64,000 nucleotides of DNA from Alphaproteobacteria bacterium (lineage in GTDB: Bacteria > Pseudomonadota > Alphaproteobacteria > MPNO01 > UBA830): the NCBI GenBank assembly GCA_965243135.1, contig OZ251539.1, positions 5,280,001 through 5,344,000 of the forward strand. Reading direction: 5' to 3'. Position 1 is the stretch's first letter. Every line of letters starts with the position of its first letter. A program made the position numbers and the translations under genes. This document shows positions 2,686 through 37,114 of the stretch, piece by piece. The notes under the pieces were generated by a model. It had not been told where the DNA came from, did not search any database, and saw nothing but the letters and a program-made list of their open reading frames with translations.

Positions 2686-3704
2686 CCGAACCTGGCGCCG
2701 TCGTACGTCGCCGGGCGGGTTCAATCATCGTCACTCTGGATAAAGATCCGGACGGGCCCGGTCCTTTGTCGAAAAGGAGGCGCGAACTAATCGAGGTCGA
2801 ACCACACAGGCTGGAAATGGTCGGTTTGGTGGGTCGCGTGCACATTACATCCGACGTCACGCGGCTTTGCCTGGAGCAAGGCATAGCCGTAGCCTGGTTC
2901 ACGCGAGGCGGCGATTTTCTCGGGCGACTCGTGCCGGAACTATCTCGAACGGCAGATTTGCGTCTGCGGCAATTCCGTCTGGCCGACAATCAGGCAACGG
3001 CAATCGATCTCGGACGAGTCTTTATCGACACCAAATTGCGCAATGCGGCAGCGACGATTGGCGCGGTGCGGTCCAATCGGCCGGGCGAAAGCCGTTTCGG
3101 AGAGGCGATCTTTCATTTGCGGCGCCTTCGTGAAGGTTTGACGAATGCCAAGGCGCGCGACGCGGTCATGGGAATTGAAGGAGAAGCCGCGCGGAGATAT
3201 TTTCAGGTTTTGGGACTTGCGTTCTCCGGTCCTATTCAATTCGAGTTAAGAAAGCGACGTCCGCCGCCGGATCCGGCCAATGCGCTTCTTTCGCTTGGCT
3301 ATGTGTTACTTGCGAACATGCTGGCGAGCCTTCTTGAGGCGCGTGGTTTCGACCCCTATCTCGGCATTCTACACACGGTACGGTCGGGCAGACCTAGTTT
3401 AGCGCTCGATCTCATGGAAGAACTGCGACATCCTCTTGTCGATCGCTTCGTTCTCCGTTTATGCAATCGTCGACAATTGACCCCGGAGGATTTCGAGAGC
3501 GACGAAGAGCGCGGCGGCGTTCGCTTGATTCGAGAAGGACTTAGGCGTTTTTTTCGCTCATGGGAGAAATATCTCGACGGCCCGATGCCGGGGGTGGATT
3601 CCGATTTGACCGTCGAACAAATAGTAGCTTTACAGGTAGATCGGTTAGCGGCTCATGTCAGAGGCTCTGCAATATACCAACCTCTTCTACTGCGGGGAGC
3701 TTGA
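2667..3704 (+). CDS. cas1: CRISPR-associated endonuclease Cas1 (type III-associated, no RT fusion)
   Basis: LYVTEPG start, GIEGEAARRYF, RRPPPDPANALLSLGY, GILH, SLALDLMEELR. Confidence 0.97.
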   Translation: MPSLYVTEPGAVVRRRAGSIIVTLDKDPDGPGPLSKRRRELIEVEPHRLEMVGLVGRVHITSDVTRLCLEQGIAVAWFTRGGDFLGRLVPELSRTADLRLRQFRLADNQATAIDLGRVFIDTKLRNAAATIGAVRSNRPGESRFGEAIFHLRRLREGLTNAKARDAVMGIEGEAARRYFQVLGLAFSGPIQFELRKRRPPPDPANALLSLGYVLLANMLASLLEARGFDPYLGILHTVRSGRPSLALDLMEELRHPLVDRFVLRLCNRRQLTPEDFESDEERGGVRLIREGLRRFFRSWEKYLDGPMPGVDSDLTVEQIVALQVDRLAAHVRGSAIYQPLLLRGA

Positions 3705-4179: not shown

Positions 4180-7100
4180 GTCGAATGCGTTGCCCCGCTA
4201 TCGAGGGGATTGAAACTTAAGGATCCGAGCCGTGGCTAGAAGAGGTCAAGCAGTTAGTCGAATGCGTTGCCCCGCTATCGAGGGGATTGAAACGGCGTCT
4301 ATCTGCCGTTCCGCCGTGTTCCGTATCGTAGTGTCGAATGCGTTGCCCCGCTATCGAGGGGATTGAAACCCATGAGAAAAAACCGCCTGATCACCAGACT
4401 ACAGCAAGTGTCGAATGCGTTGCCCCGCTATCGAGGGGATTGAAACGGGTTGGATCCGGGAATCGCAGTTCCCGGATCCAACCTCGCCGTCGAATGCGTT
4501 GCCCCGCTATCGAGGGGATTGAAACGCGTCGCCGTAATGCGTACCGAAGTACCATCCCGAAGGGTCGAATGCGTTGCCCCGCTATCGAGGGGATTGAAAC
4601 ATCTCCTCATAGGACCCGTAGAGGAGGATCTCATGGGCCCGTCGAATGCGTTGCCCCGCTATCGAGGGGATTGAAACCTTGTCCAACACCTGCGCAGCAA
4701 AGTCGCGTTCATACCCAGGTCGAATGCGTTGCCCCGCTATCGAGGGGATTGAAACGCGCTGTTGTCGATCGCCGGGAACGCGGCATCCGCAAATGCGTCG
4801 AATGCGTTGCCCCGCTATCGAGGGGATTGAAACCGTTATCACGTCGCGTTCGGTGCGGTCGGTTTCCGTAAGGTCGAATGCGTTGCCCCGCTATCGAGGG
4901 GATTGAAACCTCCTTCAAAGGATTCAATCTTCTTGACAAACTCACCCATCAGTCGAATGCGTTGCCCCGCTATCGAGGGGATTGAAACATCGCTAACCAA
5001 ATGTCGTTCTGCCAATGTTCGAAGAAGGTGTCGAATGCGTTGCCCCGCTATCGAGGGGATTGAAACGCATATCCTGCCGTAACACGCGCATAAACCTGCG
5101 GCCAGTGTGTCGAATGCGTTGCCCCGCTATCGAGGGGATTGAAACATCGCTACGGTAAAAGCCCTTCCGTGCCGCCCGGCGACAGGGTCGAATGCGTTGC
5201 CCCGCTATCGAGGGGATTGAAACGCGATAGGGGTTGTAGTCGCCGCAATTGCGGATTACGGCGTCGAATGCGTTGCCCCGCTATCGAGGGGATTGAAACA
5301 CAGGCGGGTCGTGCAGGCCCGTGCCGCGACGATGCCCGGTCGAATGCGTTGCCCCGCTATCGAGGGGATTGAAACCTCCAAAGAGTATTTGTGCTCGTTG
5401 ATTTGCAAGAGAAGCCGTCGAATGCGTTGCCCCGCTATCGAGGGGATTGAAACGTTCATCATCCACGGGGGGATAAACCACGGCTTCCGGGACGCGTCGA
5501 ATGCGTTGCCCCGCTATCGAGGGGATTGAAACAGGGCCGTGGAGCTTCCCCGCGCTATCGAGGGCCGGGGCCGCTGTCGAATGCGTTGCCCCGCTATCGA
5601 GGGGATTGAAACGCATCGCAGCGCCGGGATCGCGCCGCTGGAAGCTCTTTCTCGTCGAATGCGTTGCCCCGCTATCGAGGGGATTGAAACCGGGCCTTTT
5701 CCAAGGCCGCATCCCCGTCCAGCAGGCTATGTCGAATGCGTTGCCCCGCTATCGAGGGGATTGAAACTCGAGCTTTGAACCGTCGGAATCCCCGGAAACC
5801 TCATCTCCAGTCGAATGCGTTGCCCCGCTATCGAGGGGATTGAAACGAATCGCCCGTGAACGCATCGGAGCGAAGGCATGACGGGTCGAATGCGTTGCCC
5901 CGCTATCGAGGGGATTGAAACCGACCCGGACGGACCTGACGACGCCGGCGGAATGGGGCGCTGTCGAATGCGTTGCCCCGCTATCGAGGGGATTGAAACT
6001 TTCAGGAACTTTGCAAGGTCGCGCCAATCATGCGTTTCCGTCGAATGCGTTGCCCCGCTATCGAGGGGATTGAAACTAAGTGCACGAATAGCCGGTATCG
6101 TGCATATCGACCCGCGTCGAATGCGTTGCCCCGCTATCGAGGGGATTGAAACAAAACTGTAACCTCTTCCTGTACCGCAACGTCGCCTCCCGAATGTCGA
6201 ATGCGTTGCCCCGCTATCGAGGGGATTGAAACAACGCCCGAGCGCCCCGTAGGACGGATCGATCCCGACGTAGGTCGAATGCGTTGCCCCGCTATCGAGG
6301 GGATTGAAACTACGTTCCTTCCTCGCCGCTGGCGAGTTCCTCGTTTCCGGTCGAATGCGTTGCCCCGCTATCGAGGGGATTGAAACCGGTCGACGTCTAT
6401 GAGGCGGCCCGTAGGCGCGTCGCGTGGGGGTCGAATGCGTTGCCCCGCTATCGAGGGGATTGAAACCAAACGCTTTACTGGTCCAACACCTACGCAACAG
6501 TGTGGGTCGAATGCGTTGCCCCGCTATCGAGGGGATTGAAACCTATCGAGATCGCCGGTGGGAGTACTGGTCGTCTTCGCGTGTCGAATGCGTTGCCCCG
6601 CTATCGAGGGGATTGAAACCATGCTACGGTATCCGCCGGAGGCGGCCGACCACTTTCACCGTCGAATGCGTTGCCCCGCTATCGAGGGGATTGAAACGAT
6701 CTCATGGGCCCGATCGCAGAGGTGCATCCTGACACTGCCGGTCGAATGCGTTGCCCCGCTATCGAGGGGATTGAAACGCGGGACCAACAGATCCTGCTTG
6801 AACCGAGGTTTCGCGGCCGGTCGAATGCGTTGCCCCGCTATCGAGGGGATTGAAACCTGACTGGCAAGCGGGCTGAGCCCATGCTTGGTAGCCGCCTGGT
6901 CGAATGCGTTGCCCCGCTATCGAGGGGATTGAAACTTTCAGCGGCACGGCCGCCGTCCGGATGCAGAAAGCTCCGTGTCGAATGCGTTGCCCCGCTATCG
7001 AGGGGATTGAAACCAGTACCGACCGCGGAATGGCCAGGGCCACATGGTAGCCCAGTCGAATGCGTTGCCCCGCTATCGAGGGGATTGAAACTTGGAAGAT

Positions 7101-7867
7101 TGTGCCTTTCTTCTTGGCGTGGACGTAGCTAGGTCGAATGCGTTGCCCCGCTATCGAGGGGATTGAAACTTTCCGCATACGACGCCGCAACGTTTTCGGA
7201 TTCAATCCGAAGTCGAATGCGTTGCCCCGCTATCGAGGGGATTGAAACAAAGCCTGAATCGCAGCGTAGGACTCGCCACGCGGCTCCAGGTCGAATGCGT
7301 TGCCCCGCTATCGAGGGGATTGAAACCTTTCTCGCGGCGGCGATGCTTCCGAAAAGTGCGGTTCGTCGAATGCGTTGCCCCGCTATCGAGGGGATTGAAA
7401 CCTTTGGAATAGCTTGTTCCAGTGATAGCTTACTTGGTATCGGTCGAATGCGTTGCCCCGCTATCGAGGGGATTGAAACCCGAACGGCCTGACGCGCTGA
7501 ATGGGCCAGCTTTTCGGCGGTCGAATGCGTTGCCCCGCTATCGAGGGGATTGAAACTCGAGAACAAGCCGAGCGTCAACGAATACGCTTTCCATATCGTC
7601 GAATGCGTTGCCCCGCTATCGAGGGGATTGAAACTCCATGGTGGCATACCCACTATCCGCCGAACGGGTGGGTCGAATGCGTTGCCCCGCTATCGAGGGG
7701 ATTGAAACTAGGTTTGGCAAACGACGTCAAACTCCTCGCCCAGGCCGGGTTCGTCGAATGCGTTGCCCCGCTATCGAGGGGATTGAAACGGGAACGCGGC
7801 ATCGGCAAACGCTTTGTTTGTCCAGCAGCGGTCGAATGCGTTGCCCCGCTATCGAGGGGATTGAAAC
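4180..7867 (+). CRISPR. CRISPR array 1 (type III-associated): 48 repeats of 37 bp, GTCGAATGCGTTGCCCCGCTATCGAGGGGATTGAAAC, and 47 spacers of 37-44 nt
   Basis: Repeats counted by eye from 4180 to 7831. The ATTGAAAC 3' end and the leader position give + orientation. Confidence 0.99.
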
Positions 7868-8050: not shown

Positions 8051-8266
8051 CAGCAGCGGCGCGAGATCCGCGTCGGCGGGACGATGGCGGCGCGAAGAGA
8101 CGGCAGCGGCGCGAGATCCGCGTCGGCGGGACGATGGCGGCGCGAAGAGACGGCAGCGGCGCGAGATCCGCGTCGGCGGGACGATGGCGGCGCGAAGAGA
8201 CGGCAGCGGCGCGAGATCCGCGTCGGCGGGACGATGGCGGCGCGAAGAGACGGCAGCGGTGCGAGA
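8051..8266. repeat. 50-bp tandem repeat, about 4.3 copies, inside the IS
   Basis: Unit CGGCAGCGGCGCGAGATCCGCGTCGGCGGGACGATGGCGGCGCGAAGAGA at 8051, 8101, 8151, 8201, partial at 8251. Confidence 0.97.
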
Positions 8267-22378: not shown

Positions 22379-25300
22379 GGTGTATCCGGCGTGCGGGGGA
22401 AGCTGTCCGCCAGCCGTAGAGGGACCGGACGACGAAGGTACATCCCCGCGTGTGCGGGGGAAGCTCGGTCCACAGCGCGTCGACCGCGTTGACGAAAGGT
22501 ACATCCCCGCGTGTGCGGGGGAAGCACGACTAGGGCGATTTGCTTCACGGTATAGTCGGGTACATCCCCGCGTGTGCGGGGGAAGCATGCCGGGGGAACG
22601 CGCAACGCATCCCCCCGGCGGTACATCCCCGCGTGTGCGGGGGAAGCTTCCGGCCCGGCCTGGAGAATCCGCCTGCTCGGGGTACATCCCCGCGTGTGCG
22701 GGGGAAGCTTTCACTGGCCGTTTCCGGTACCGCGTTTATCGGGTACATCCCCGCGTGTGCGGGGGAAGCATAGAATCTTTTGAGAAAAGAACGTTTATTA
22801 CGGGTACATCCCCGCGTGTGCGGGGGAAGCCGGATCCTGCTGTGCGCCGAGCGCGTGGCGGTCGGTACATCCCCGCGTGTGCGGGGGAAGCTGATATGAG
22901 ATTCACGGACGTTTTGGCGGTTGGGGTACATCCCCGCGTGTGCGGGGGAAGCTTCGGCCGGTAGAAAGGTCATGCATCCAGCTCAGGTACATCCCCGCGT
23001 GTGCGGGGGAAGCGCCGCGACAAACCGAGGCGACCACCTCGTCCGGGGTACATCCCCGCGTGTGCGGGGGAAGCCGAGCGATGACCGCAATTCCGAGACT
23101 GCAACCGGGTACATCCCCGCGTGTGCGGGGGAAGCCTGGCGCCGGCGGACGAACATGACGGCCCGCGCGGTACATCCCCGCGTGTGCGGGGGAAGCTTCT
23201 CCAGCGTTTGCGAGCATCACATGATGCCGGGTACATCCCCGCGTGTGCGGGGGAAGCCGTCTTCCACCGACGGCAGCCCGTGCACGATGCGGTACATCCC
23301 CGCGTGTGCGGGGGAAGCCGGTTCTGACGGCCGCGGAAGCGCGGAAGGCTGGGTACATCCCCGCGTGTGCGGGGGAAGCATGCAGACTAAGGCTTGAAAG
23401 GCTTGCGGTTTACGGTACATCCCCGCGTGTGCGGGGGAAGCCTTCCTGAAAGGATAACGGACATGACCAAGACGGGGTACATCCCCGCGTGTGCGGGGGA
23501 AGCGAGCTCGCGTCGGACCTCCTCATGCGCCTCTCGGGTACATCCCCGCGTGTGCGGGGGAAGCACCTTGAAGCTGGCCGGCTGACCCTTCGACAAAGGT
23601 ACATCCCCGCGTGTGCGGGGGAAGCTACCGGCGATAACGGCGATAACGAGAAACAAAAGGTACATCCCCGCGTGTGCGGGGGAAGCCGTGAGACTTCATA
23701 ACTCAGACTCCCATATGAGGGTACATCCCCGCGTGTGCGGGGGAAGCAAGGTGACGTGTTCGATTACTTCGACCCGGACGGGTACATCCCCGCGTGTGCG
23801 GGGGAAGCAGCCCGAACCAGTCGCGCCCGCGCTTCCGCAACGGTACATCCCCGCGTGTGCGGGGGAAGCCGCGGCCTGCGCAATCTCTTCGTCGTCAGGA
23901 AAGGTACATCCCCGCGTGTGCGGGGGAAGCCCTACGGAAGCGAGTCCCTGGTACTGCGTTTCGGGTACATCCCCGCGTGTGCGGGGGAAGCCGTCACAAC
24001 GGGAGATAAAAAGATGACGACCACGGTACATCCCCGCGTGTGCGGGGGAAGCCTGGATCGCCGACGGCGGAATGCCGTTCAACTTGGTACATCCCCGCGT
24101 GTGCGGGGGAAGCCGGAAAAACTGGTGGGACAACTGCACGCTCCGCGGTACATCCCCGCGTGTGCGGGGGAAGCTGCCGACAGCCAGAATGTCCCTGAAC
24201 CGCATCGGGTACATCCCCGCGTGTGCGGGGGAAGCTCCTCAACATGATCGAAAAGAAGGGCGTTACCAGGTACATCCCCGCGTGTGCGGGGGAAGCCGCG
24301 CTCTGACGTTTTCCGGCAATTTTGCCGAGGGTACATCCCCGCGTGTGCGGGGGAAGCGTGATGTCGACCCACAACGGGGAATCGAATCCGGGTACATCCC
24401 CGCGTGTGCGGGGGAAGCCCGCCGTTCCCGGCGGAAGTCGAACCAGCATCAGGTACATCCCCGCGTGTGCGGGGGAAGCGCGTTGCGTTCGACGATTTGC
24501 CCTTCCAGACGGGGTACATCCCCGCGTGTGCGGGGGAAGCGTGGGCGCCTACGCGCGGGAGCGCGACGCCCATGGTACATCCCCGCGTGTGCGGGGGAAG
24601 CCTCGTCCACTGCCCCTCGACCAGGAACTCCAGAGGTACATCCCCGCGTGTGCGGGGGAAGCGATAGCGAGGCCGTCGAAGAAGCGGAGGAGGGCGGTAC
24701 ATCCCCGCGTGTGCGGGGGAAGCGCCGGGCGATACCGGCGGACGTGCTGTACCACGGGTACATCCCCGCGTGTGCGGGGGAAGCCCGTCCTGGACCGCCG
24801 GGATCGTCCTGCAGCTGGGTACATCCCCGCGTGTGCGGGGGAAGCGGGATCGTCCGGGTCCGCACGGGCAAGCGCACCGGTACATCCCCGCGTGTGCGGG
24901 GGAAGCTCGAACGCCGCCTGGCGTCGCGCCGTCCGGTCGGGTACATCCCCGCGTGTGCGGGGGAAGCCAGCGTCGACCAGACCAAGCGGGACGGCTACGC
25001 GGTACATCCCCGCGTGTGCGGGGGAAGCTACGGCCGCGCGCGGGTCCAGGTGCAGACGCACGGTACATCCCCGCGTGTGCGGGGGAAGCAGCTGGCAGTT
25101 GGTGAAGGTGGACGAAATATCGGGTACATCCCCGCGTGTGCGGGGGAAGCGAAATCGCCAACCGGACGGTCAAAGCGCATCGGGGTACATCCCCGCGTGT
25201 GCGGGGGAAGCTGACGATTGCCGGCGGACGCGGACCCGCAACCGGGTACATCCCCGCGTGTGCGGGGGAAGCTCACCCGGTAGACGCAGGCGGCGCGCTT

Positions 25301-27163
25301 CGAGGGGTACATCCCCGCGTGTGCGGGGGAAGCGTCGCGGCGGCGATCTCCGCGGCATGAGCGAGGGGTACATCCCCGCGTGTGCGGGGGAAGCGACGAG
25401 GCCTGCCAGACGTCGCCGCCCGGAGAGGGTACATCCCCGCGTGTGCGGGGGAAGCGTCCCGTCCGAGGCCGACCGCGGCAGCCGGATAGGTACATCCCCG
25501 CGTGTGCGGGGGAAGCCGGTCGTCGGTCGACCCGAGAGAGATCTCCCGAGGTACATCCCCGCGTGTGCGGGGGAAGCGTCGCGCCATTCGCGTTCGCTGT
25601 AGGGCGTGAGGGTACATCCCCGCGTGTGCGGGGGAAGCCATGCAGGGAATAAAGCTTCTATACCTGACTGAGGTACATCCCCGCGTGTGCGGGGGAAGCC
25701 GCTTTGTCAATCCCTAACCGAATCAAGCTGAAGGTACATCCCCGCGTGTGCGGGGGAAGCCATCCAAGAAAGTCACTCATCGCCCCGTAGGCGGGTACAT
25801 CCCCGCGTGTGCGGGGGAAGCGCGATGGGAGCCGGCGTGATGCCGGAAGTGATCGGTACATCCCCGCGTGTGCGGGGGAAGCGTGGAGGAAGCCCGGGCA
25901 CGGCTCGGGATGATGGGTACATCCCCGCGTGTGCGGGGGAAGCTAGGCCAGTCCGCTGTCGCCGCCGAAGCCGTCCGGTACATCCCCGCGTGTGCGGGGG
26001 AAGCCGTCGACGCGGTGGTCACCGATCCGCCGTATCAGGTACATCCCCGCGTGTGCGGGGGAAGCGCGCCGGACTGGTCCGACGAGGCGCCGGTGAACGG
26101 TACATCCCCGCGTGTGCGGGGGAAGCGCGTTGCGGTCGTCGCGCGCCCACCGGGCGCCGGGTACATCCCCGCGTGTGCGGGGGAAGCGTCAGCAGGTCGA
26201 TCGTCTCCGGCTCCAGGGCGGGTACATCCCCGCGTGTGCGGGGGAAGCACCGTTCCGCACTTCGCCCGGTCCGCCGTCCAAGGTACATCCCCGCGTGTGC
26301 GGGGGAAGCGGCGATCACCGAGCGCGACGACGGGTCGGGAGCGGTACATCCCCGCGTGTGCGGGGGAAGCCGAAAGGCGTAAGGGCGACGGAGCGCGAAA
26401 TAAGGTACATCCCCGCGTGTGCGGGGGAAGCGTCGTCAGGCGGTAGATCGGCAGCTCCACCCAGGGTACATCCCCGCGTGTGCGGGGGAAGCCGCTCACC
26501 GGCGCTCGCATCGCTTTCAACACCAGGTACATCCCCGCGTGTGCGGGGGAAGCGTCTGGAGATAGCCGGCATACGACGCCAGTTGCGGTACATCCCCGCG
26601 TGTGCGGGGGAAGCCCCGCCGCACCTCCTCCAGCACACGGCGATCCAGGTACATCCCCGCGTGTGCGGGGGAAGCCGAGGGAAGTCGGGGGTCCGGACCT
26701 CGCAAGTGGGTACATCCCCGCGTGTGCGGGGGAAGCGGTGAAGGCGTTCCTGGACAACTCTCTCCGCTCGGTACATCCCCGCGTGTGCGGGGGAAGCCCG
26801 TAGACCCGCGCCACTTCCATCAACTCGTAAGGTACATCCCCGCGTGTGCGGGGGAAGCCCCGGCGCCGGCGGTCGGCCTCAACCTGACGAAGGTACATCC
26901 CCGCGTGTGCGGGGGAAGCGAGGAATTTCTCAGGGCGCCCGGGAAGACGATGGGTACATCCCCGCGTGTGCGGGGGAAGCTTCGCGGTCACTTGTCGAGC
27001 GTAGACGACGTACGGTACATCCCCGCGTGTGCGGGGGAAGCCGCGATCGGGGCCGGGGAGCGAAGGCATCCTCGGGTACATCCCCGCGTGTGCGGGGGAA
27101 GCGCGGCGACCGTGCGGGCCATCCTCGAACCGTTCGGTACATCCCCGCGTGTGCGGGGGAAGC
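22379..27163 (-). CRISPR. CRISPR array 2 (type I-E): about 78 repeats GCTTCCCCCGCACACGCGGGGATGTACC (minus strand) plus a degenerate terminal repeat; 61-bp period
   Basis: Plus-strand GGTACATCCCCGCGTGTGCGGGGGAAGC from 22437 to 27136 (count estimated from the period). A degenerate copy at 22379-22403 marks the distal end. Confidence 0.99.
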
Positions 27164-31861: not shown

Positions 31862-33414
31862 TCCGTGTCCTCCTGTGCGTCGTGGCTAAATGCGTCGGGC
31901 AGGCATTTGCGCAAGCCTCCGTAGAATACGGCCTCGGAGGCCGCGCGCGCTTTCTCGCGTCTCGCGCCGGGCGCGGCGGTGGCCCAGACCTCGCGGGCAA
32001 GGCGCTCGGCCTGCTCGCGCAGGATCTTTTGCCAGTCGGCCGCCTCGAATCCCCGCTCCGTCGTCTCGGTGCCGAACAGGCAATCGAAAAACCGTTCATC
32101 TACGGCGCGGTCATACCTATCCGTGACCGTGTTTGCGCTGCTATCCTGAAAATCCGGATTCTCCGGCCCTTGCAGATAGACGAGCGCGGCTCTCCGGAGC
32201 ACCTTCCGCGCCTCGCCAGCATGGTCAACCATCTTCTTCGAGAGCATTGCAAGCGGCGTCGGCTCATCGTCATCGTCCGGGTCGGATTCTGCAGTCAACT
32301 GCGCAGCGATCGAATACGGCAACGGAATCACCCGCTCGTGCAGGCCCTCCGTCTTGCCCCGCCCGCGAACCATGACGGCCATGTGGATTTCCGAATCCTG
32401 GTCGACCTCCACGTTTAGATCCTTTAACGCAAGCGGCGGCAGGAGCTCGCCGCGTTGCAGCAGGATCCTTTGGGCCAAGCGATAATCGAAGCCGCCGGCG
32501 CCGACGGTCAGTGCGGACGCGCCCTCTTTGGTCCGATCGACAGGAACCCACGGATCGGCCAGGTTCCCATTCAGTGCTTGGGCGTTCACCCTCGCGTGCT
32601 CCGATGGCCTGCCGACCGCGCGAAGCCGCGCGTCCTGACCGACCTTTAGTCGAACGCGGCGGCAGACCTCGATGAAGTAGGGGTCAAGTTCGTCGAGGCT
32701 TATCTGTCCGTCGTTGTCCCACGGCTTGAGCCAGGTGAGCGCCAAACCATCTCGTCTTCGGAAGAGACTGTCCCCGGCCCGTCTGAGCACGTCATCCCTT
32801 CGGGCGAGCAGCATGCGGCTGGCACGGCAAACGCGCGGCCCCCAGCGCGGCCCCGGTCGCCGATCCACCAAAACCCGGCTGGAAAAGCCACCGTTCATGC
32901 GCGCAATACCGTAGTTTTTGGGACCAGAGTAGCCCTGAGTTGTCTGCATGGTCAGCAAGGCGTAAAGCCAATGGTGGGGTGCGCCTCCGGTCGCCTGCGC
33001 CTGTTTGCGATCATGGTTCTTGGCCGTTACCGGAACGTCGAGCATATCCGGCGTGCGGGCGCATTCGTTGAAGCTTCCGATGCATGTTGTCGGCGGCTGC
33101 AGGAACGCTGGTTTCGTTGGGTCGGAGACGGCGAGACTCCACGCCGTGGCGACGCATCTGGGAGTCAGCGCGGCGATCAGGCTGTGCCACTCGTCCGCCT
33201 CCGTCGGCAGGGTCTCCCGGCTCCCGTTGTGCAAGGCGACCGCCCCGAGCTGCGCAAGGAACTGATACCAAGCCTGCGCCTGATGCGCAGCGAGACCGTG
33301 GAAGGAATCGATGGCATCGCCGACGAGCCCGGCGTAGAGCATCGGCAAGGTTACGGAATCGCCGTTGCCGTCTCGAACAACGGGGATTATGGAACAAGTC
33401 AGCAGGTCGTGCAT
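31858..33414 (-). CDS. cas8e: Type I-E large subunit Cas8e/Cse1
   Basis: HQAQAWYQFLAQL, PAFLQPP, NYGIARMNGG, LDPYFIEVCRRVRL, GKTEGLHER; operon position. Confidence 0.88.
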   Translation of the reverse strand: MHDLLTCSIIPVVRDGNGDSVTLPMLYAGLVGDAIDSFHGLAAHQAQAWYQFLAQLGAVALHNGSRETLPTEADEWHSLIAALTPRCVATAWSLAVSDPTKPAFLQPPTTCIGSFNECARTPDMLDVPVTAKNHDRKQAQATGGAPHHWLYALLTMQTTQGYSGPKNYGIARMNGGFSSRVLVDRRPGPRWGPRVCRASRMLLARRDDVLRRAGDSLFRRRDGLALTWLKPWDNDGQISLDELDPYFIEVCRRVRLKVGQDARLRAVGRPSEHARVNAQALNGNLADPWVPVDRTKEGASALTVGAGGFDYRLAQRILLQRGELLPPLALKDLNVEVDQDSEIHMAVMVRGRGKTEGLHERVIPLPYSIAAQLTAESDPDDDDEPTPLAMLSKKMVDHAGEARKVLRRAALVYLQGPENPDFQDSSANTVTDRYDRAVDERFFDCLFGTETTERGFEAADWQKILREQAERLAREVWATAAPGARREKARAASEAVFYGGLRKCLPDAFSHDAQEDTE

Positions 33415-33530
33415 GGCTCGGTGCTCTTAAGGGTGGTCGGTCGCTTGATGGCCGGAAAGATGGCGGCCCGCATGCGCCGCCTTGCCATGAGTCGGGCAGG
33501 TCGCTGCGATAATGAACAAGTCGCCATCAT
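33399..33530 (-). CDS. Putative 43-aa small ORF upstream of and overlapping cas8e
   Basis: Strong [11 protein letters not shown] then ATGATG; MMATCSLSQRPARLMARRRMRAAIFPAIKRPTTLKSTEPCTTC. Confidence 0.4.
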   Translation of the reverse strand: MMATCSLSQRPARLMARRRMRAAIFPAIKRPTTLKSTEPCTTC

Positions 33531-33602
33531 TGACAAATCTCCTTCTGGTTGCAGGTTTCGCGGCAGCGTCCTTACCGCCCAGCATACATGCCTGAGGGAA
33601 AA

Positions 33603-33630
33603 ATTATAACCTGTCATTATACCTGTTAAG
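33603..33630 (-). promoter_or_regulatory. Leftward promoter region of the Cascade operon (two TATAAT boxes); predicted target of the mini-array crRNA
   Basis: Minus strand ...ACAGG TATAAT GACAGGT TATAAT TTT...; plus strand AAC + CTGTCATTATACCTGT matches the mini-array spacer. Confidence 0.7.
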
Positions 33631-33643
33631 AAAAATTTTTTTG

Positions 33644-33672
33644 TTGACCGCGAACCGACGGTGAGATATTCT
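33644..33672 (+). promoter_or_regulatory. Sigma70 promoter of the mini-array
   Basis: TTGACC-N17-TATTCT with an A/T-tract UP element just upstream. Confidence 0.8.
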
Positions 33673-33673
33673 G

Positions 33674-33763
33674 GCCTGCCCCGGCCTCTCGGGGATGAAC
33701 CGCTGACGTTATAGCTGTCCATGCAGCCGTTGGTGCTTCCCCCGCATGTGCGGGGACTTGTGG
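33674..33763 (+). ncRNA. Single-spacer CRISPR mini-array (crRNA-like regulatory RNA, CreR/CreA-like)
   Basis: Repeat 1 GCCTGCCCCGGCCTCTCGGGGATGAACCG (33674-33702), 32-nt spacer (33703-33734), repeat 2 GCTTCCCCCGCATGTGCGGGGA... (from 33735). Both keep the I-E hairpin. Confidence 0.88.
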
Positions 33764-33790
33764 AACGCGTAGAGAGCAGGTCGGGAACCA

Positions 33791-36373
33791 TCAATCGTCG
33801 ACTCTTGCCAAGCCCAGACGATCATATAGGTAACGGTGTGCGCCCATCCGGAAGCGAATTTCGCCGTCGGATGCAGAGATTTCCGACGGTTCGGCATCGA
33901 GGGGCAACTCGTTGACCATCCATCCCGGCAGCGTAAACTCCCGAACCCGTGCGCCGAAGGGGCCATGCAGGGGCTCAGGCAGTTCGATTCTACGGTCGTC
34001 CAATCCCAACCGCGTCATGATCGAGCGGTCGTCCTGCGGACAATTTGCGAGCAGAGATTCGAGCCAGTCGAGCAGTACCGAGCGCGCTGTCATGCCCTCG
34101 CCGAGCGCCGCGCCGAGCGCTGTCTCCAAGTGCGCGTCCCACGGCGGGCCGAGCTCTCTCGCGAGTTCGCACAGGCTTTCACCATGCGTCGCGGCCTCGA
34201 CCAGCGCGCGATTGTCGTCCGGGATGTGAATGGCGCCACGTTGCCTCAACCATCGCTCCGTCGCCAACACGCCGATCATGTTTCGGTAAACCCGGCCGAG
34301 GCCCATCGGCACTTGCCCGCGAACCTCGCCCTTCGCGTTGACATATTTGACCAGTTCCTCCGCAGTTGGCGCCAGCACCTCGACCGTCGGCGTCTCGAAG
34401 CCGATTGGGCGGGAGAGAACGTGACGGTGCAACCGGCCGATGCGTTGCAGCAGCACGTCGCCCGGCGCGATGTCCGTAATCAGCCGGTCGGCGCATATGT
34501 CGAGCGATTGCTCCGCCGTCTGCGTGGTCACGGCGACGATGCCAGCTCGAGATTCCTTCCCGAACGCGCGTTCCAGAACCTTATCCAGCTGCCGCCGGTC
34601 TTTCGGCGCGTAGCGACTGTGGTGCGGTGTGGCTACACCGTTGCAACGGAGCAGCGGCGCGCCGATGTCTTCCAATTGCCGAAAGGTATCTTGGGCGTCA
34701 CGCACGGTGTTGCGGATGAACAGCACGGCAGCGCCGTTCTCCGCCTGCCGTTTGACTTCCGCCAAGGCCGAACCGAGCGCCCCGTGATCAAGCAGCCGGA
34801 CGCTCACTCGCTTCTCCCGGCCGTCTCTGGGAAGAGGCCGCAACCCCTCGCCCGTTCGTTGAACGGCCGGGTAGGGCACTGCGGCGGCTTCCGCAAGGGT
34901 TGGCGACTCATGTTTTTCCACCCGTGCGCCGGATGCCAGAAAGCGCAGGCGCGCTACTGCGCCCAATGTCGCCGACATCAGCAGCGCATGGCCGCCGGCG
35001 GCCGAATGCTGATCGAGCACATTGCGCAGAATCTCGGTCATATAGGCGTCCGAGGCGTGCACCTCGTCGATGATCAACAGCAGGCGCAGCATCGGGCTGG
35101 AGCGGAGATGCGCGTGCCTCACCTGCAAACCGCCGAGCAGCAACTGGTCCACTGTCCCGACCATCGCTGCGCCGCTGAGATACCGTTTCGGGCGTTCCAC
35201 GGCCCATGCGCGGTCGACGTCCGTCTCGTCGGGCCAGAGCACCTTGGCCTGTTCCGGCAGGATCCGGCCCTCTTCGGCGTCGACTCGCAGATAGCCAGGA
35301 ACGGCCAACCCCACCGGCGGCGCCTCGTGGCCGAACCATCTTTGCAAGATTTCCGCGATCCGTCGGTGGATCTGCACGGCCGCCGCGCGGGTCGGCAGCG
35401 CGAAATAGAAGCCTTCCACCTCGCCAGCCCGGAACAGCCGAAGGAAATGCAGCACCGCGGCTTCGGTCTTTCCAGATCCGGTTTCCGCTTCCAGGGTCAC
35501 GACCTGCCCGTTCTTGGGCAGCGACGCGTTCCGCAGCGCCGCTTGCGCCGGCCGCGGCGTCGGCAGGTCCGGGAAGAGATCGGCGAAGGCGGTGGGGACC
35601 GTTGTTGCCGCTCGCCGCGCAACGCTCGAATCGAGCCAACGGCTGCGCAGCAGGTTGGCGGCCGCCATGCGTGCCCACGGAATCCGCTCGTTGCCGGTCG
35701 GTGCGCCTTGATGGGGAAACATAAAAACGCTCTGGTCCGAGCCGAGCCAGTCTGCGAGCGTGATCAGGCCAGCCAAAGCATGCATGAAGCGCGGCTCGGA
35801 CGGCAAAGTCGCCGCGGCTTCGTTGAACGCCAGAGGGAACATGGCTTTGAGAGCGTTCGCCGTTTCGGCGAGCGCCGACATGGGCGAATAGCCGTTCCGT
35901 TCGTTCCAGAGGCTCGGGTCCGGCCGGGCGCCGCCGTACGGCAAGCTTCCGTGATGGGCGAGCACGGCGTTCCACCAGGTAGCCTCGTCCTCTTCGTTGG
36001 CGAACCAGCACTTCCAGTCCCTTCTACGCAGGGCCTTGCGAACGCCTTTTGACAGCGGGCCTGTCGACGAATCGCAGACGATGGACCAGATCGGACCGAT
36101 ATGTCCGGCGTCCGGCTTTTCCCGGTGCAGCTTTGCCTGGAAACCATGATTGACTTTGCCAGCGTCGTGCAAACCGATGAAGAAGCCCGTTCTCTCGATA
36201 TCAATGACGTTGAGTCGACGTTTCGCCAACGCCTCCAGTCTGCGCCGAATGGTCGCAACGTTCATCAGCCCCTCGGCGACAGCGGCGACGTCGATGCAGT
36301 GATCGATCAGCTCGAGGAAAAGGGAAGAATCCGTCTCCGACTCTCGTACCGATTTGGCCCAGGCAACGCTCAT
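33791..36373 (-). CDS. cas3: Cas3 HD nuclease-helicase
   Basis: LIDHCIDVA, LHDAGK, AHHG, LADWLGS, AETGSGKTEA, IDEVH, MSAT, QRIGRLHRH. Confidence 0.97.
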   Translation of the reverse strand: MSVAWAKSVRESETDSSLFLELIDHCIDVAAVAEGLMNVATIRRRLEALAKRRLNVIDIERTGFFIGLHDAGKVNHGFQAKLHREKPDAGHIGPIWSIVCDSSTGPLSKGVRKALRRRDWKCWFANEEDEATWWNAVLAHHGSLPYGGARPDPSLWNERNGYSPMSALAETANALKAMFPLAFNEAAATLPSEPRFMHALAGLITLADWLGSDQSVFMFPHQGAPTGNERIPWARMAAANLLRSRWLDSSVARRAATTVPTAFADLFPDLPTPRPAQAALRNASLPKNGQVVTLEAETGSGKTEAAVLHFLRLFRAGEVEGFYFALPTRAAAVQIHRRIAEILQRWFGHEAPPVGLAVPGYLRVDAEEGRILPEQAKVLWPDETDVDRAWAVERPKRYLSGAAMVGTVDQLLLGGLQVRHAHLRSSPMLRLLLIIDEVHASDAYMTEILRNVLDQHSAAGGHALLMSATLGAVARLRFLASGARVEKHESPTLAEAAAVPYPAVQRTGEGLRPLPRDGREKRVSVRLLDHGALGSALAEVKRQAENGAAVLFIRNTVRDAQDTFRQLEDIGAPLLRCNGVATPHHSRYAPKDRRQLDKVLERAFGKESRAGIVAVTTQTAEQSLDICADRLITDIAPGDVLLQRIGRLHRHVLSRPIGFETPTVEVLAPTAEELVKYVNAKGEVRGQVPMGLGRVYRNMIGVLATERWLRQRGAIHIPDDNRALVEAATHGESLCELARELGPPWDAHLETALGAALGEGMTARSVLLDWLESLLANCPQDDRSIMTRLGLDDRRIELPEPLHGPFGARVREFTLPGWMVNELPLDAEPSEISASDGEIRFRMGAHRYLYDRLGLARVDD

Positions 36374-37114
36374 TTTCAAAATCCCTCAACTCATTCGGAG
36401 CGTGCACCTTAGCGCGTATTTCACTGGATCCAATCTGGCGGAGGCGTTTGCGACGCGCCATTATTGTCAGCTATCCATCCGGTCGGGCGCCCCGCAATTC
36501 AGCTGGCCGCCCGCCGACAGATTCGCAAGGGTCTCGCAGAAGGTCTCGAGCAGGACCGGACGCAATGCGTAGCGGCGCTCCCCATAGTCGGGCAGTCGTG
36601 ATTCGATCAGCGCGAGGATATGGGGACGGGAGGTTGTCGATCCGAATTCAGGGCAGGGCTTGGTGTCGTTGATTGCCAGCGGCATGTTGCGGCAGCGGCT
36701 CCCGGTCGAGATTGTCCGGCTGACCCCTGCGCCGGGATCGGAGGCGGATACTTGGAAGATAGCCCGCACCGAGCGTAGCTCTATTTTTTGCCGACCCCGC
36801 CGCTGAAAGCGTCCCTCGCAGGCTCGACGGCAACCTCAGGCAGCACGGGAACCTCCAAGAAGTTCCATGCCGCCGGATCAGCGCCAGGAAGTCCAAGCTT
36901 TTGGGTAACCACATGATTTAGTGGAATTTCTTCACCGGAAAGACCAGCATGTGGTCTTCTCCGACCAAGCAGGTAGACCAGATCTGCTACCTAAAATTAT
37001 GTCAATAAAGGGCTTTTATTGGAAGAAAAAATTTGCCGCAGATTGTCGACACCGTCGGGTTGACCGGAAAGCCGTATTCGGCGAAATTGAATCTCTCGAA
37101 GGAACAACAACACC

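Follow-up and report, generated by a model that had tools for sequence, protein, structure and literature searches.

Mini-arrays have been reported in ∼19% of bacterial type I-E CRISPR loci (PMC10120712). In Citrobacter rodentium, the gap between cas3 and casA of the type I-E locus is described as holding an open reading frame (ORF), 96 bp long, with a strong ribosome-binding site (RBS), placed downstream of a promoter that is matched by a CRISPR RNA (crRNA)-like gene on the opposite strand (PMC12055562). Induction of this ORF arrests growth, for which both the ATG and the frame are required, and gut colonisation depends on the Cascade genes, though not on cas3, a dependence that disappears when that region is deleted (PMC12055562). 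In Salmonella enterica type I-E, CreR has been shown to repress the casA promoter together with Cascade, no toxin being recognised in the account given (10.1101/2023.03.10.532045). Here, the corresponding gap was analysed in a 64,000-nt stretch (the window; positions 5,280,001–5,344,000 of contig OZ251539.1, assembly GCA_965243135.1) from an alphaproteobacterium whose genome is a single 6.1-Mb contig of 65% GC. On the minus strand of the window the type I-E genes, assigned with Pfam, follow in the order cas3, a 376-nt gap, cas8e, cse2, cas7, cas5, cas6e and cas1. The gap contains a degenerate mini-array and, in front of cas8e, a 43-codon ORF with a strong Shine-Dalgarno (SD) sequence (Table 1). 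The regulatory part of this arrangement is of a kind already published, namely CreR/CreA of type I-E; the ORF is read here, tentatively, as a translated leader frame that acts in cis or has no effect.

Toxins associated with crRNA-like RNAs take several forms. In haloarchaea, CreT RNAs need strong signals at the start, a pair of identical minor codons and a stable stem-loop, and the authors of that work raise the possibility of longer ORFs with minor codons near the beginning (PMC8501985). Type I-F has a known protein toxin, CreP (10.1101/2024.01.05.574328). For CreTA1 of Pseudomonas aeruginosa, it is reported that creT shares promoters with adjacent cas genes, as the ORF does in the window; unlike the window, that system is of type I-F and its toxin is a proline-codon RNA (10.1101/2024.10.29.618823). 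A review describes CreR as generally uncoupled from toxins (PMC12737573). In the main texts of the literature on CreTA with type I-E systems, supplements being outside the search, no report was found of an ORF that overlaps cas8e.

The mini-array of the window (33674–33762, with a 61-nt period) lies on the plus strand, divergent from cas8e. The original prediction, which had rightly placed a crRNA-targeted promoter upstream of the ORF, had this orientation wrong. Two degenerate repeats enclose a spacer-like sequence within the cas locus, and the would-be crRNA has both a 5′ handle and a repeat hairpin, as expected of a CreR/CreA gene. Also as expected, its spacer shows a partial, seed-weighted match to a nearby promoter, that of the ORF and cas8e, 92 nt away. 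The match covers 13 of the first 16 positions (1–3, 5, 7–11 and 13–16) and stands next to a protospacer-adjacent motif (PAM) that is non-canonical, AAC, where AAG would be canonical. It overlaps one TATAAT box and adjoins another, the second box abutting the PAM. Across the 6.1-Mb genome, at least 13 of 15 seed positions are matched at just three non-self sites, and the cas8e promoter site is the only one of these with an AAN PAM.

The locus resembles that of C. rodentium in layout, as judged by description and not by sequence: both have an opposite-strand crRNA-like gene in the gap between cas3 and casA/cas8e, partly matching the promoter of a short ORF that has a strong RBS and is of similar size in the two (31 codons in C. 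rodentium and 43 in the window). The PAM is ATG in C. rodentium and AAC in the window, the C. rodentium ORF as described has no rare codons, and its toxicity and need for translation were established by experiment (PMC12055562). Like the window, Salmonella has a degenerate mini-CRISPR between cas3 and casA whose spacer partly matches the casA promoter; there, the target, ∼140 bp upstream of casA, has an AAG PAM and is matched at 15 positions in a row (10.1101/2023.03.10.532045). In the window, the PAM is AAC, the 13/16 match has gaps at 4, 6 and 12, and the leader is filled by the strong-SD ORF.

Metagenomic contigs from three sequencing runs, X4, X5 and X7, are alike to the window at >99%, 95%–99% and 90%–95%, respectively. 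Over 33523–33900 (378 nt), X4 differs from the window at only three positions, 33616, 33622 and 33627, which are positions 6, 12 and 17 of the protospacer. The same changes are present in X7, and within the protospacer X4 and X7 differ from the window nowhere else. Positions 6 and 12 are unpaired in type I-E Cascade. The same positions are stated to be unpaired in type I-F (PMC10120712). The change at position 17 creates a match to the spacer. Of the two TATAAT boxes, the first is altered in X4 and X7 (33616 and 33622), and the second is the one kept in the variants, as a close variant in X7.

Among 17 candidate mini-arrays of relatives (16 of the 20 loci tested), six match their own leader at no fewer than 13 of 15 seed positions, with AAT or AAC as the PAM. 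The mismatches at 4, 6 and 12 are common to the window and to two of these relatives' loci, L004 and L011, and the target in L004 likewise lies between the −35 and −10 boxes, with the −10 box overlapping the PAM. In this Cas8e clade (the leaders of the window, L004, L011, L012, L013, L026 and L137), the PAM of the mini-array target is AAT or AAC and not AAG. The AAT/AAC PAM, combined with the shared mismatches, may be a possible route to binding without interference. CreR-type control of the promoter shared by the ORF and cas8e is well supported, and the promoter is predicted to be repressed in a Cascade-dependent manner. Cascade carrying the crRNA-like RNA would sit on the −35/spacer region and would thereby lower transcription of the ORF and of cas8e to cas6e together.

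The start of the ORF reads, on the minus strand, AGAAGGAGA at 33546–33538, TTTGTCA at 33537–33531 and ATGATG at 33530–33525, and the encoded peptide is basic (7 Arg, 2 Lys, 1 Glu) and contains Cys (3 residues), all as originally predicted. The peptide has no hydrophobic stretch. Paired with the 16S tail, the SD of the ORF reaches −9.3 kcal/mol, a value equalled or exceeded at 9% of the first ATGs of 1,962 long ORFs. The predicted weakness of the cas8e RBS is borne out by −2.2 kcal/mol, with about 80% of the same sites as strong or stronger; the values for cse2, cas7 and cas5 are −10.3, −7.0 and −9.5 kcal/mol. Since cas8e starts at 33414 and the ORF ends at 33399, the frames overlap by 16 nt, again as claimed. 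This arrangement, a weak start overlapped by the end of an upstream frame, is the one expected of a translational coupler, and a small ORF with a strong RBS downstream of a crRNA-matched promoter is likewise the one expected of a translated CreT.

The ORF had also been called the first cistron. It is indeed the first frame with an SD, but an SD-less frame of 52 codons (33585..33427, minus strand) starts earlier on the presumed transcript, ∼10 nt past the presumed transcription start site (TSS). This frame is in the reading frame of cas8e and ends at a TAA five codons ahead of the cas8e ATG; because that TAA (33429) is changed in X5 and X7, it runs into cas8e in both. Some relatives carry N-terminally extended Cas8e annotations (P0009, 597 aa; P0015, 551 aa), which were judged too indirect as a guide to the upstream sequence. 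A frameshifted or extended Cas8e was considered as the explanation of the ORF and rejected: the ORF is in another frame, and Cas8e, whose N-terminus from 33414 is the M-H-D-L-L usual for the family, aligns from these residues in all relatives.

We tentatively prefer to regard the ORF as an upstream frame, equipped with an SD, in the 5′ leader of a Cascade operon under CreR-type autoregulation. Owing to its strong SD the ORF would be translated, and the peptide would have no function of its own. If there is an effect in cis, ribosomes would traverse this GC-rich leader, terminate 16 nt beyond the weak start of cas8e and, in some cases, restart at that start. This preference rests on the lack of a coding signature and on L002, a near relative that keeps the SD and ATG with a four-codon frame and no antitoxin.

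The coding signature was sought in several ways. No homologue of the ORF was found among the predicted proteins of 23–76 aa in a collection of 5.8 billion proteins (word-based search) or, with a full HMMER search, among 1.84 billion representatives, and Pfam and PADLOC gave no match. The codon-usage score of the ORF, −0.146 per codon, is matched or undercut in just 2.5% of the 1,660 in-frame windows taken from the genome's genes and in none of the 41 taken from cas3, cas8e and cas7; a codon-usage scan of the region showed no frame that is coding-like. In X5 there are four replacements (M2T, M20V, A22N and F25L) and two silent changes in 43 codons. Compared with X5, X7 additionally has S6P, more changes at codons 20–22 and a net loss of three bases. 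Counted by hand over X5 and X7, replacement and silent changes per site are about equal (ratio near 1), and purifying selection on the peptide is therefore not apparent. Only the two silent changes fall in the last 18 codons, too few to weigh.

At the DNA level, the near-relative comparison comprised L002 and L021, two metagenome-assembled genomes labelled Alphaproteobacteria (Cas8e 81% and 76% identical, respectively), over 8.5 kb each. In L002 the SD and ATG are identical to those of the window, a TAA follows after four codons, and the mini-array and its promoter are absent; the SD-ORF thus ends ∼100 nt before cas8e, and the homologous bases further downstream fall in other frames. Against a background identity of ∼70%, identity of the SD and ATG would arise by chance with a probability of ∼0.04 (an estimate). 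L021 lacks the SD-ATG part and the mini-array, its TATAAT box following directly after cas3. The weak GAAGAGC motif before cas8e is kept in both. An intact ORF is accordingly found together with the mini-array (window, X5 and X7), and the ORF is cut or absent where the mini-array is missing (L002 and L021), a pattern that spans too few independent lineages to carry much weight. A second X7 contig (window 33394–33425) joins the start of cas8e to a different upstream sequence resembling the L021-type leader, so both leader types are present in one sample.

An alternative is that the frame is fortuitous and untranslated, made of a chance SD-like hexamer and an ATG, the AT-rich patch at codons 4–7 being a promoter-like or protein-binding element and not a run of codons. 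We consider this unlikely. Its low codon-usage score and the lack of a conserved peptide are what such a frame would show, and 43 codons after an ATG are unremarkable at 61% GC, an open frame of this length being expected in about one quarter of cases at this base composition (an estimate). Genome-wide, 73 of 287 AAGGAG-N5-9-ATG sites precede frames of <60 codons, which is near the counts for permuted hexamers. A promoter-like match, TTGTCA-16-CATTAT, overlaps the ORF start, and the AT-rich patch is itself a weak −10-like match; the −35-like hexamer, however, is weakened in X5 and X7. An SD-N5-9-ATG occurs in just 2.7% of 1000 dinucleotide shuffles of the window leader, and a chance origin sits poorly with the SD and ATG that L002 retains and with the similar mini-ORFs that recur in L004 and L046 (below).

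Several observations weigh against a mere leader frame. Genes of an operon that are translationally coupled have an upstream frame that ends just past a weak downstream start, usually with an overlap of 1–4 nt. A backward restart over 16 nt exceeds this usual range, and in the window the upstream frame is not a conserved gene. The arrangement is also not kept in relatives with the same weak cas8e start: L021 has no upstream SD-ORF and L002 one of four codons. Coupling is therefore not needed in L021, which weakens this version, so that the original suggestion of a translational coupler agrees with the weak SD and the overlap but not with these relatives. The codons at positions 4–7 are a further difficulty, as a run of at least three such rare codons within codons 2–8 is unique to the ORF among 1,727 genomic SD-ATG sites. 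These codons may be a by-product of base composition, since the same AT-rich patch is the weak −10-like match. Of 11 mini-array leaders, 3 (those of the window, L004 and L046) have a strong-SD mini-ORF, where 0.28 would be expected (Poisson P 0.003), and the mini-ORFs of L004 and L046 lie ∼190–245 nt from cas8e; they are too far away to couple, which indicates another selected role. Finally, the translated ORF at the corresponding position in C. rodentium is described as a proven toxin (PMC12055562).

The last points lead to a reading in line with the RNA or peptide toxin of the original prediction, a CreTA-type addiction or abortive-infection module in which a translated toxin, repressed by Cascade with the crRNA-like RNA, would be freed when Cascade is lost or blocked. 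The toxin would share its promoter with cas8e. The layout is that of the proven C. rodentium case, promoter sharing has a precedent in P. aeruginosa, the ORF with its SD and ATG is retained where the mini-array is and cut at codon 5 or absent where it is not, and strong-SD mini-ORFs are enriched in mini-array leaders; the reading is drawn from the layout, the co-retention and the enrichment. We regard it as possible though doubtful. The peptide is basic, without a hydrophobic stretch or a homologue, its amino-acid changes are as frequent as silent ones, 8 of the 11 mini-array leaders have no such ORF, in L002 the SD and ATG persist in the absence of an antitoxin, and, the promoter being common, the ORF would be expressed at all times when Cascade is. 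The original interpretation is thus partly supported. The conservation on which it depended holds for near relatives, where those with the mini-array keep both SD and ORF, but distant mini-array loci have no homologous ORF. Nor would such a toxin be undescribed, as had been suggested, because a type I-E CreTA has been established experimentally in C. rodentium (PMC12055562).

A narrower form of the toxin reading takes the ORF as a counterpart, in bacterial type I-E, of the tRNA-sequestering CreT of haloarchaea, and gives it the longer-ORF form foreseen by the authors of that work (PMC8501985). The very strong start would load ribosomes onto a run of the rarest codons of the genome (UCA and UUA), read by the single-copy tRNA-Ser(UGA) and tRNA-Leu(UAA), and these tRNAs would be tied up if repression by Cascade failed. 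Because the ORF and cas8e share a promoter, one crRNA-like RNA would set both the level of Cascade and an addiction or abortive switch. Analogous to the type I-B CreT of Haloarcula hispanica and Halobacterium hubeiense, the ORF has a strong SD and AUG, early rare codons (four of the seven rarest, at positions 4–7), a predicted downstream stem-loop and a promoter matched by a crRNA-like RNA. The haloarchaeal genes, as described, are mini-ORFs with tandem identical rare codons, a required stem-loop and a promoter of their own that diverges from cas8 (PMC8501985). In the window, the four rare codons are all different and not tandem identical, the frame is 43 codons long, the hairpin is not significant and the promoter is common with cas8e. 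The identical adjacent codon pairs of the ORF are ATG ATG, which is lost in X5 and X7, and, made of common codons, GCC GCC and ACC ACC. ACT and TGT are decoded by tRNAs that also read common codons. The hairpin noted in the original prediction does form in the minimum free energy (MFE) fold, but its stability does not exceed that of shuffled sequence (z −0.07; z −0.81 for the leader as a whole), and in X7, where most changes in the ORF fall on the hairpin, its arms carry four substitutions and three deleted bases. Its homologue in L002 is a strong hairpin (z −3.7). Rfam returned no match over 33350–33850 at E up to 1. We consider such a counterpart very unlikely here.

The mini-ORFs in other mini-array leaders deserve separate description. 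When the window, which was picked for this feature, is left out, they occur in 2 of 10 leaders against 0.25 expected (P about 0.03, calculated by hand). L004 (Acidobacteriota; 3296–3425) has the same promoter-target layout, with AAGGAGG, 7 nt and an ATG opening a 14-codon frame that has a significant hairpin on either side (z −3.9 and −2.8) and lies ∼190 nt before cas8e. This frame is a better CreT-like candidate than the ORF of the window. In L003, the sister locus of L004, the mini-array is shortened, its hairpins being 49 nt apart, and neither the promoter nor the 14-codon frame is present. In L046 (Dehalococcoidia; 3245–3290), AAGGAG, 7 nt and ATG ATA GTT AGA ACA... begin a frame of nine codons just downstream of the mini-array target. 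Leaders of distant loci diverge too far for their alignment to decide on homology between the mini-ORF of the window and that of L004. Small ORFs also lie between the mini-array and cas8e in three Caldilineaceae loci (L036:3235–3477, L038:3236–3490 and L050:3047–3268). Two of them, 80 and 84 aa long, have about 50 N-terminal residues in common, and the third, of 73 aa, is acidic. None belongs to a Pfam or PADLOC family, and in the protein collection the 73-aa protein has no relative besides itself.

Table 1. Features of the cas3–cas8e region in window coordinates
Feature	Position	Strand	Remarks
cas3 (862 aa from TTG)	33791..36379	-	Pfam Cas3_HD, Cas3 C-terminal and DEAD domains
Second degenerate repeat, CCCCGC..GCGGGG hairpin intact	33735..33762	+	20/28 identical to main-array repeat
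Spacer-like 32 nt of the crRNA-like RNA	33703..33734	+	No change in X4, X5 or X7 among the differences listed
First degenerate repeat, ending in ATGAACCG, the would-be 8-nt 5′ handle	33674..33702	+	21/28 identical to main-array repeat, crRNA orientation
Promoter-like site of the mini-array (TTGACC, 17 nt, TATTCT)	33644..33672	+	Consensus scan: 2 sites vs 0.4 expected in shuffles
PAM AAC (33608–33610) and partial protospacer (33611–33642)	33608..33642	+	Best non-self spacer match in the window
Two TATAAT boxes (33621–33616 and 33608–33603)	33603..33621	-	Read from sequence; TSS position presumed
SD AAGGAG, 8 nt from ATG	33539..33544	-	-9.3 kcal/mol; unchanged in X5 and X7
43-codon ORF with TGA	33399..33530	-	Uninterrupted over 43 codons in X5 and 42 in X7
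Codons 4–7, ACT TGT TCA TTA	33510..33521	-	Ranks 7, 4, 3 and 1 from rarest of 61
GC hairpin within ORF, stem GGCGGC/GCCGCC, outer AUGGC/GCCAU	33448..33488	-	Forms in MFE fold
cas8e (cse1), 518 aa	31858..33414	-	Pfam Cse1; homologues

The main type I-E array of the window spans ∼22924–27163, with the repeat in crRNA orientation on the minus strand. TRF splits it into separate blocks (22924–23379, 23903–24297 and 24389–27163), so the array may be interrupted. A second CRISPR array, of a type other than I-E, lies at 4180–7867 on the plus strand (48 copies of a 37-nt repeat, Rfam CRISPR-DR10), and a 50-nt tandem repeat of 4.3 copies, 99% identical, is found at 8053–8266. The window's Cas8e is absent from 60 taxonomic relatives, its own genome being the sole carrier among the 61 genomes checked, and no close Cas8e was found among 80 metagenome-scan loci, in which the best full-length identity was 43% and one partial match reached 65%. 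A plasmid search returned six records, every one <60% identical. The closest relatives of Cas8e, P0002, P0003 and P0005–P0013, are 73%–88% identical at the protein level.

If the ORF is only a leader frame, the window adds a further case of CreR regulation in type I-E, one with an instructive micro-evolution, in that the changes in the promoter target fall on positions unpaired by Cascade. Were the ORF toxic, type I-E would have a second CreT, unrelated to the first and fused to the Cascade operon, and this would suggest that some loci regarded as standalone CreR hide toxins in their leaders, a question described as left open by the authors of the CreR work (10.1101/2023.03.10.532045). The strong-SD mini-ORFs and small orphan ORFs at the corresponding position in Acidobacteriota, Dehalococcoidia and Caldilineaceae provide a short list of similar candidates.

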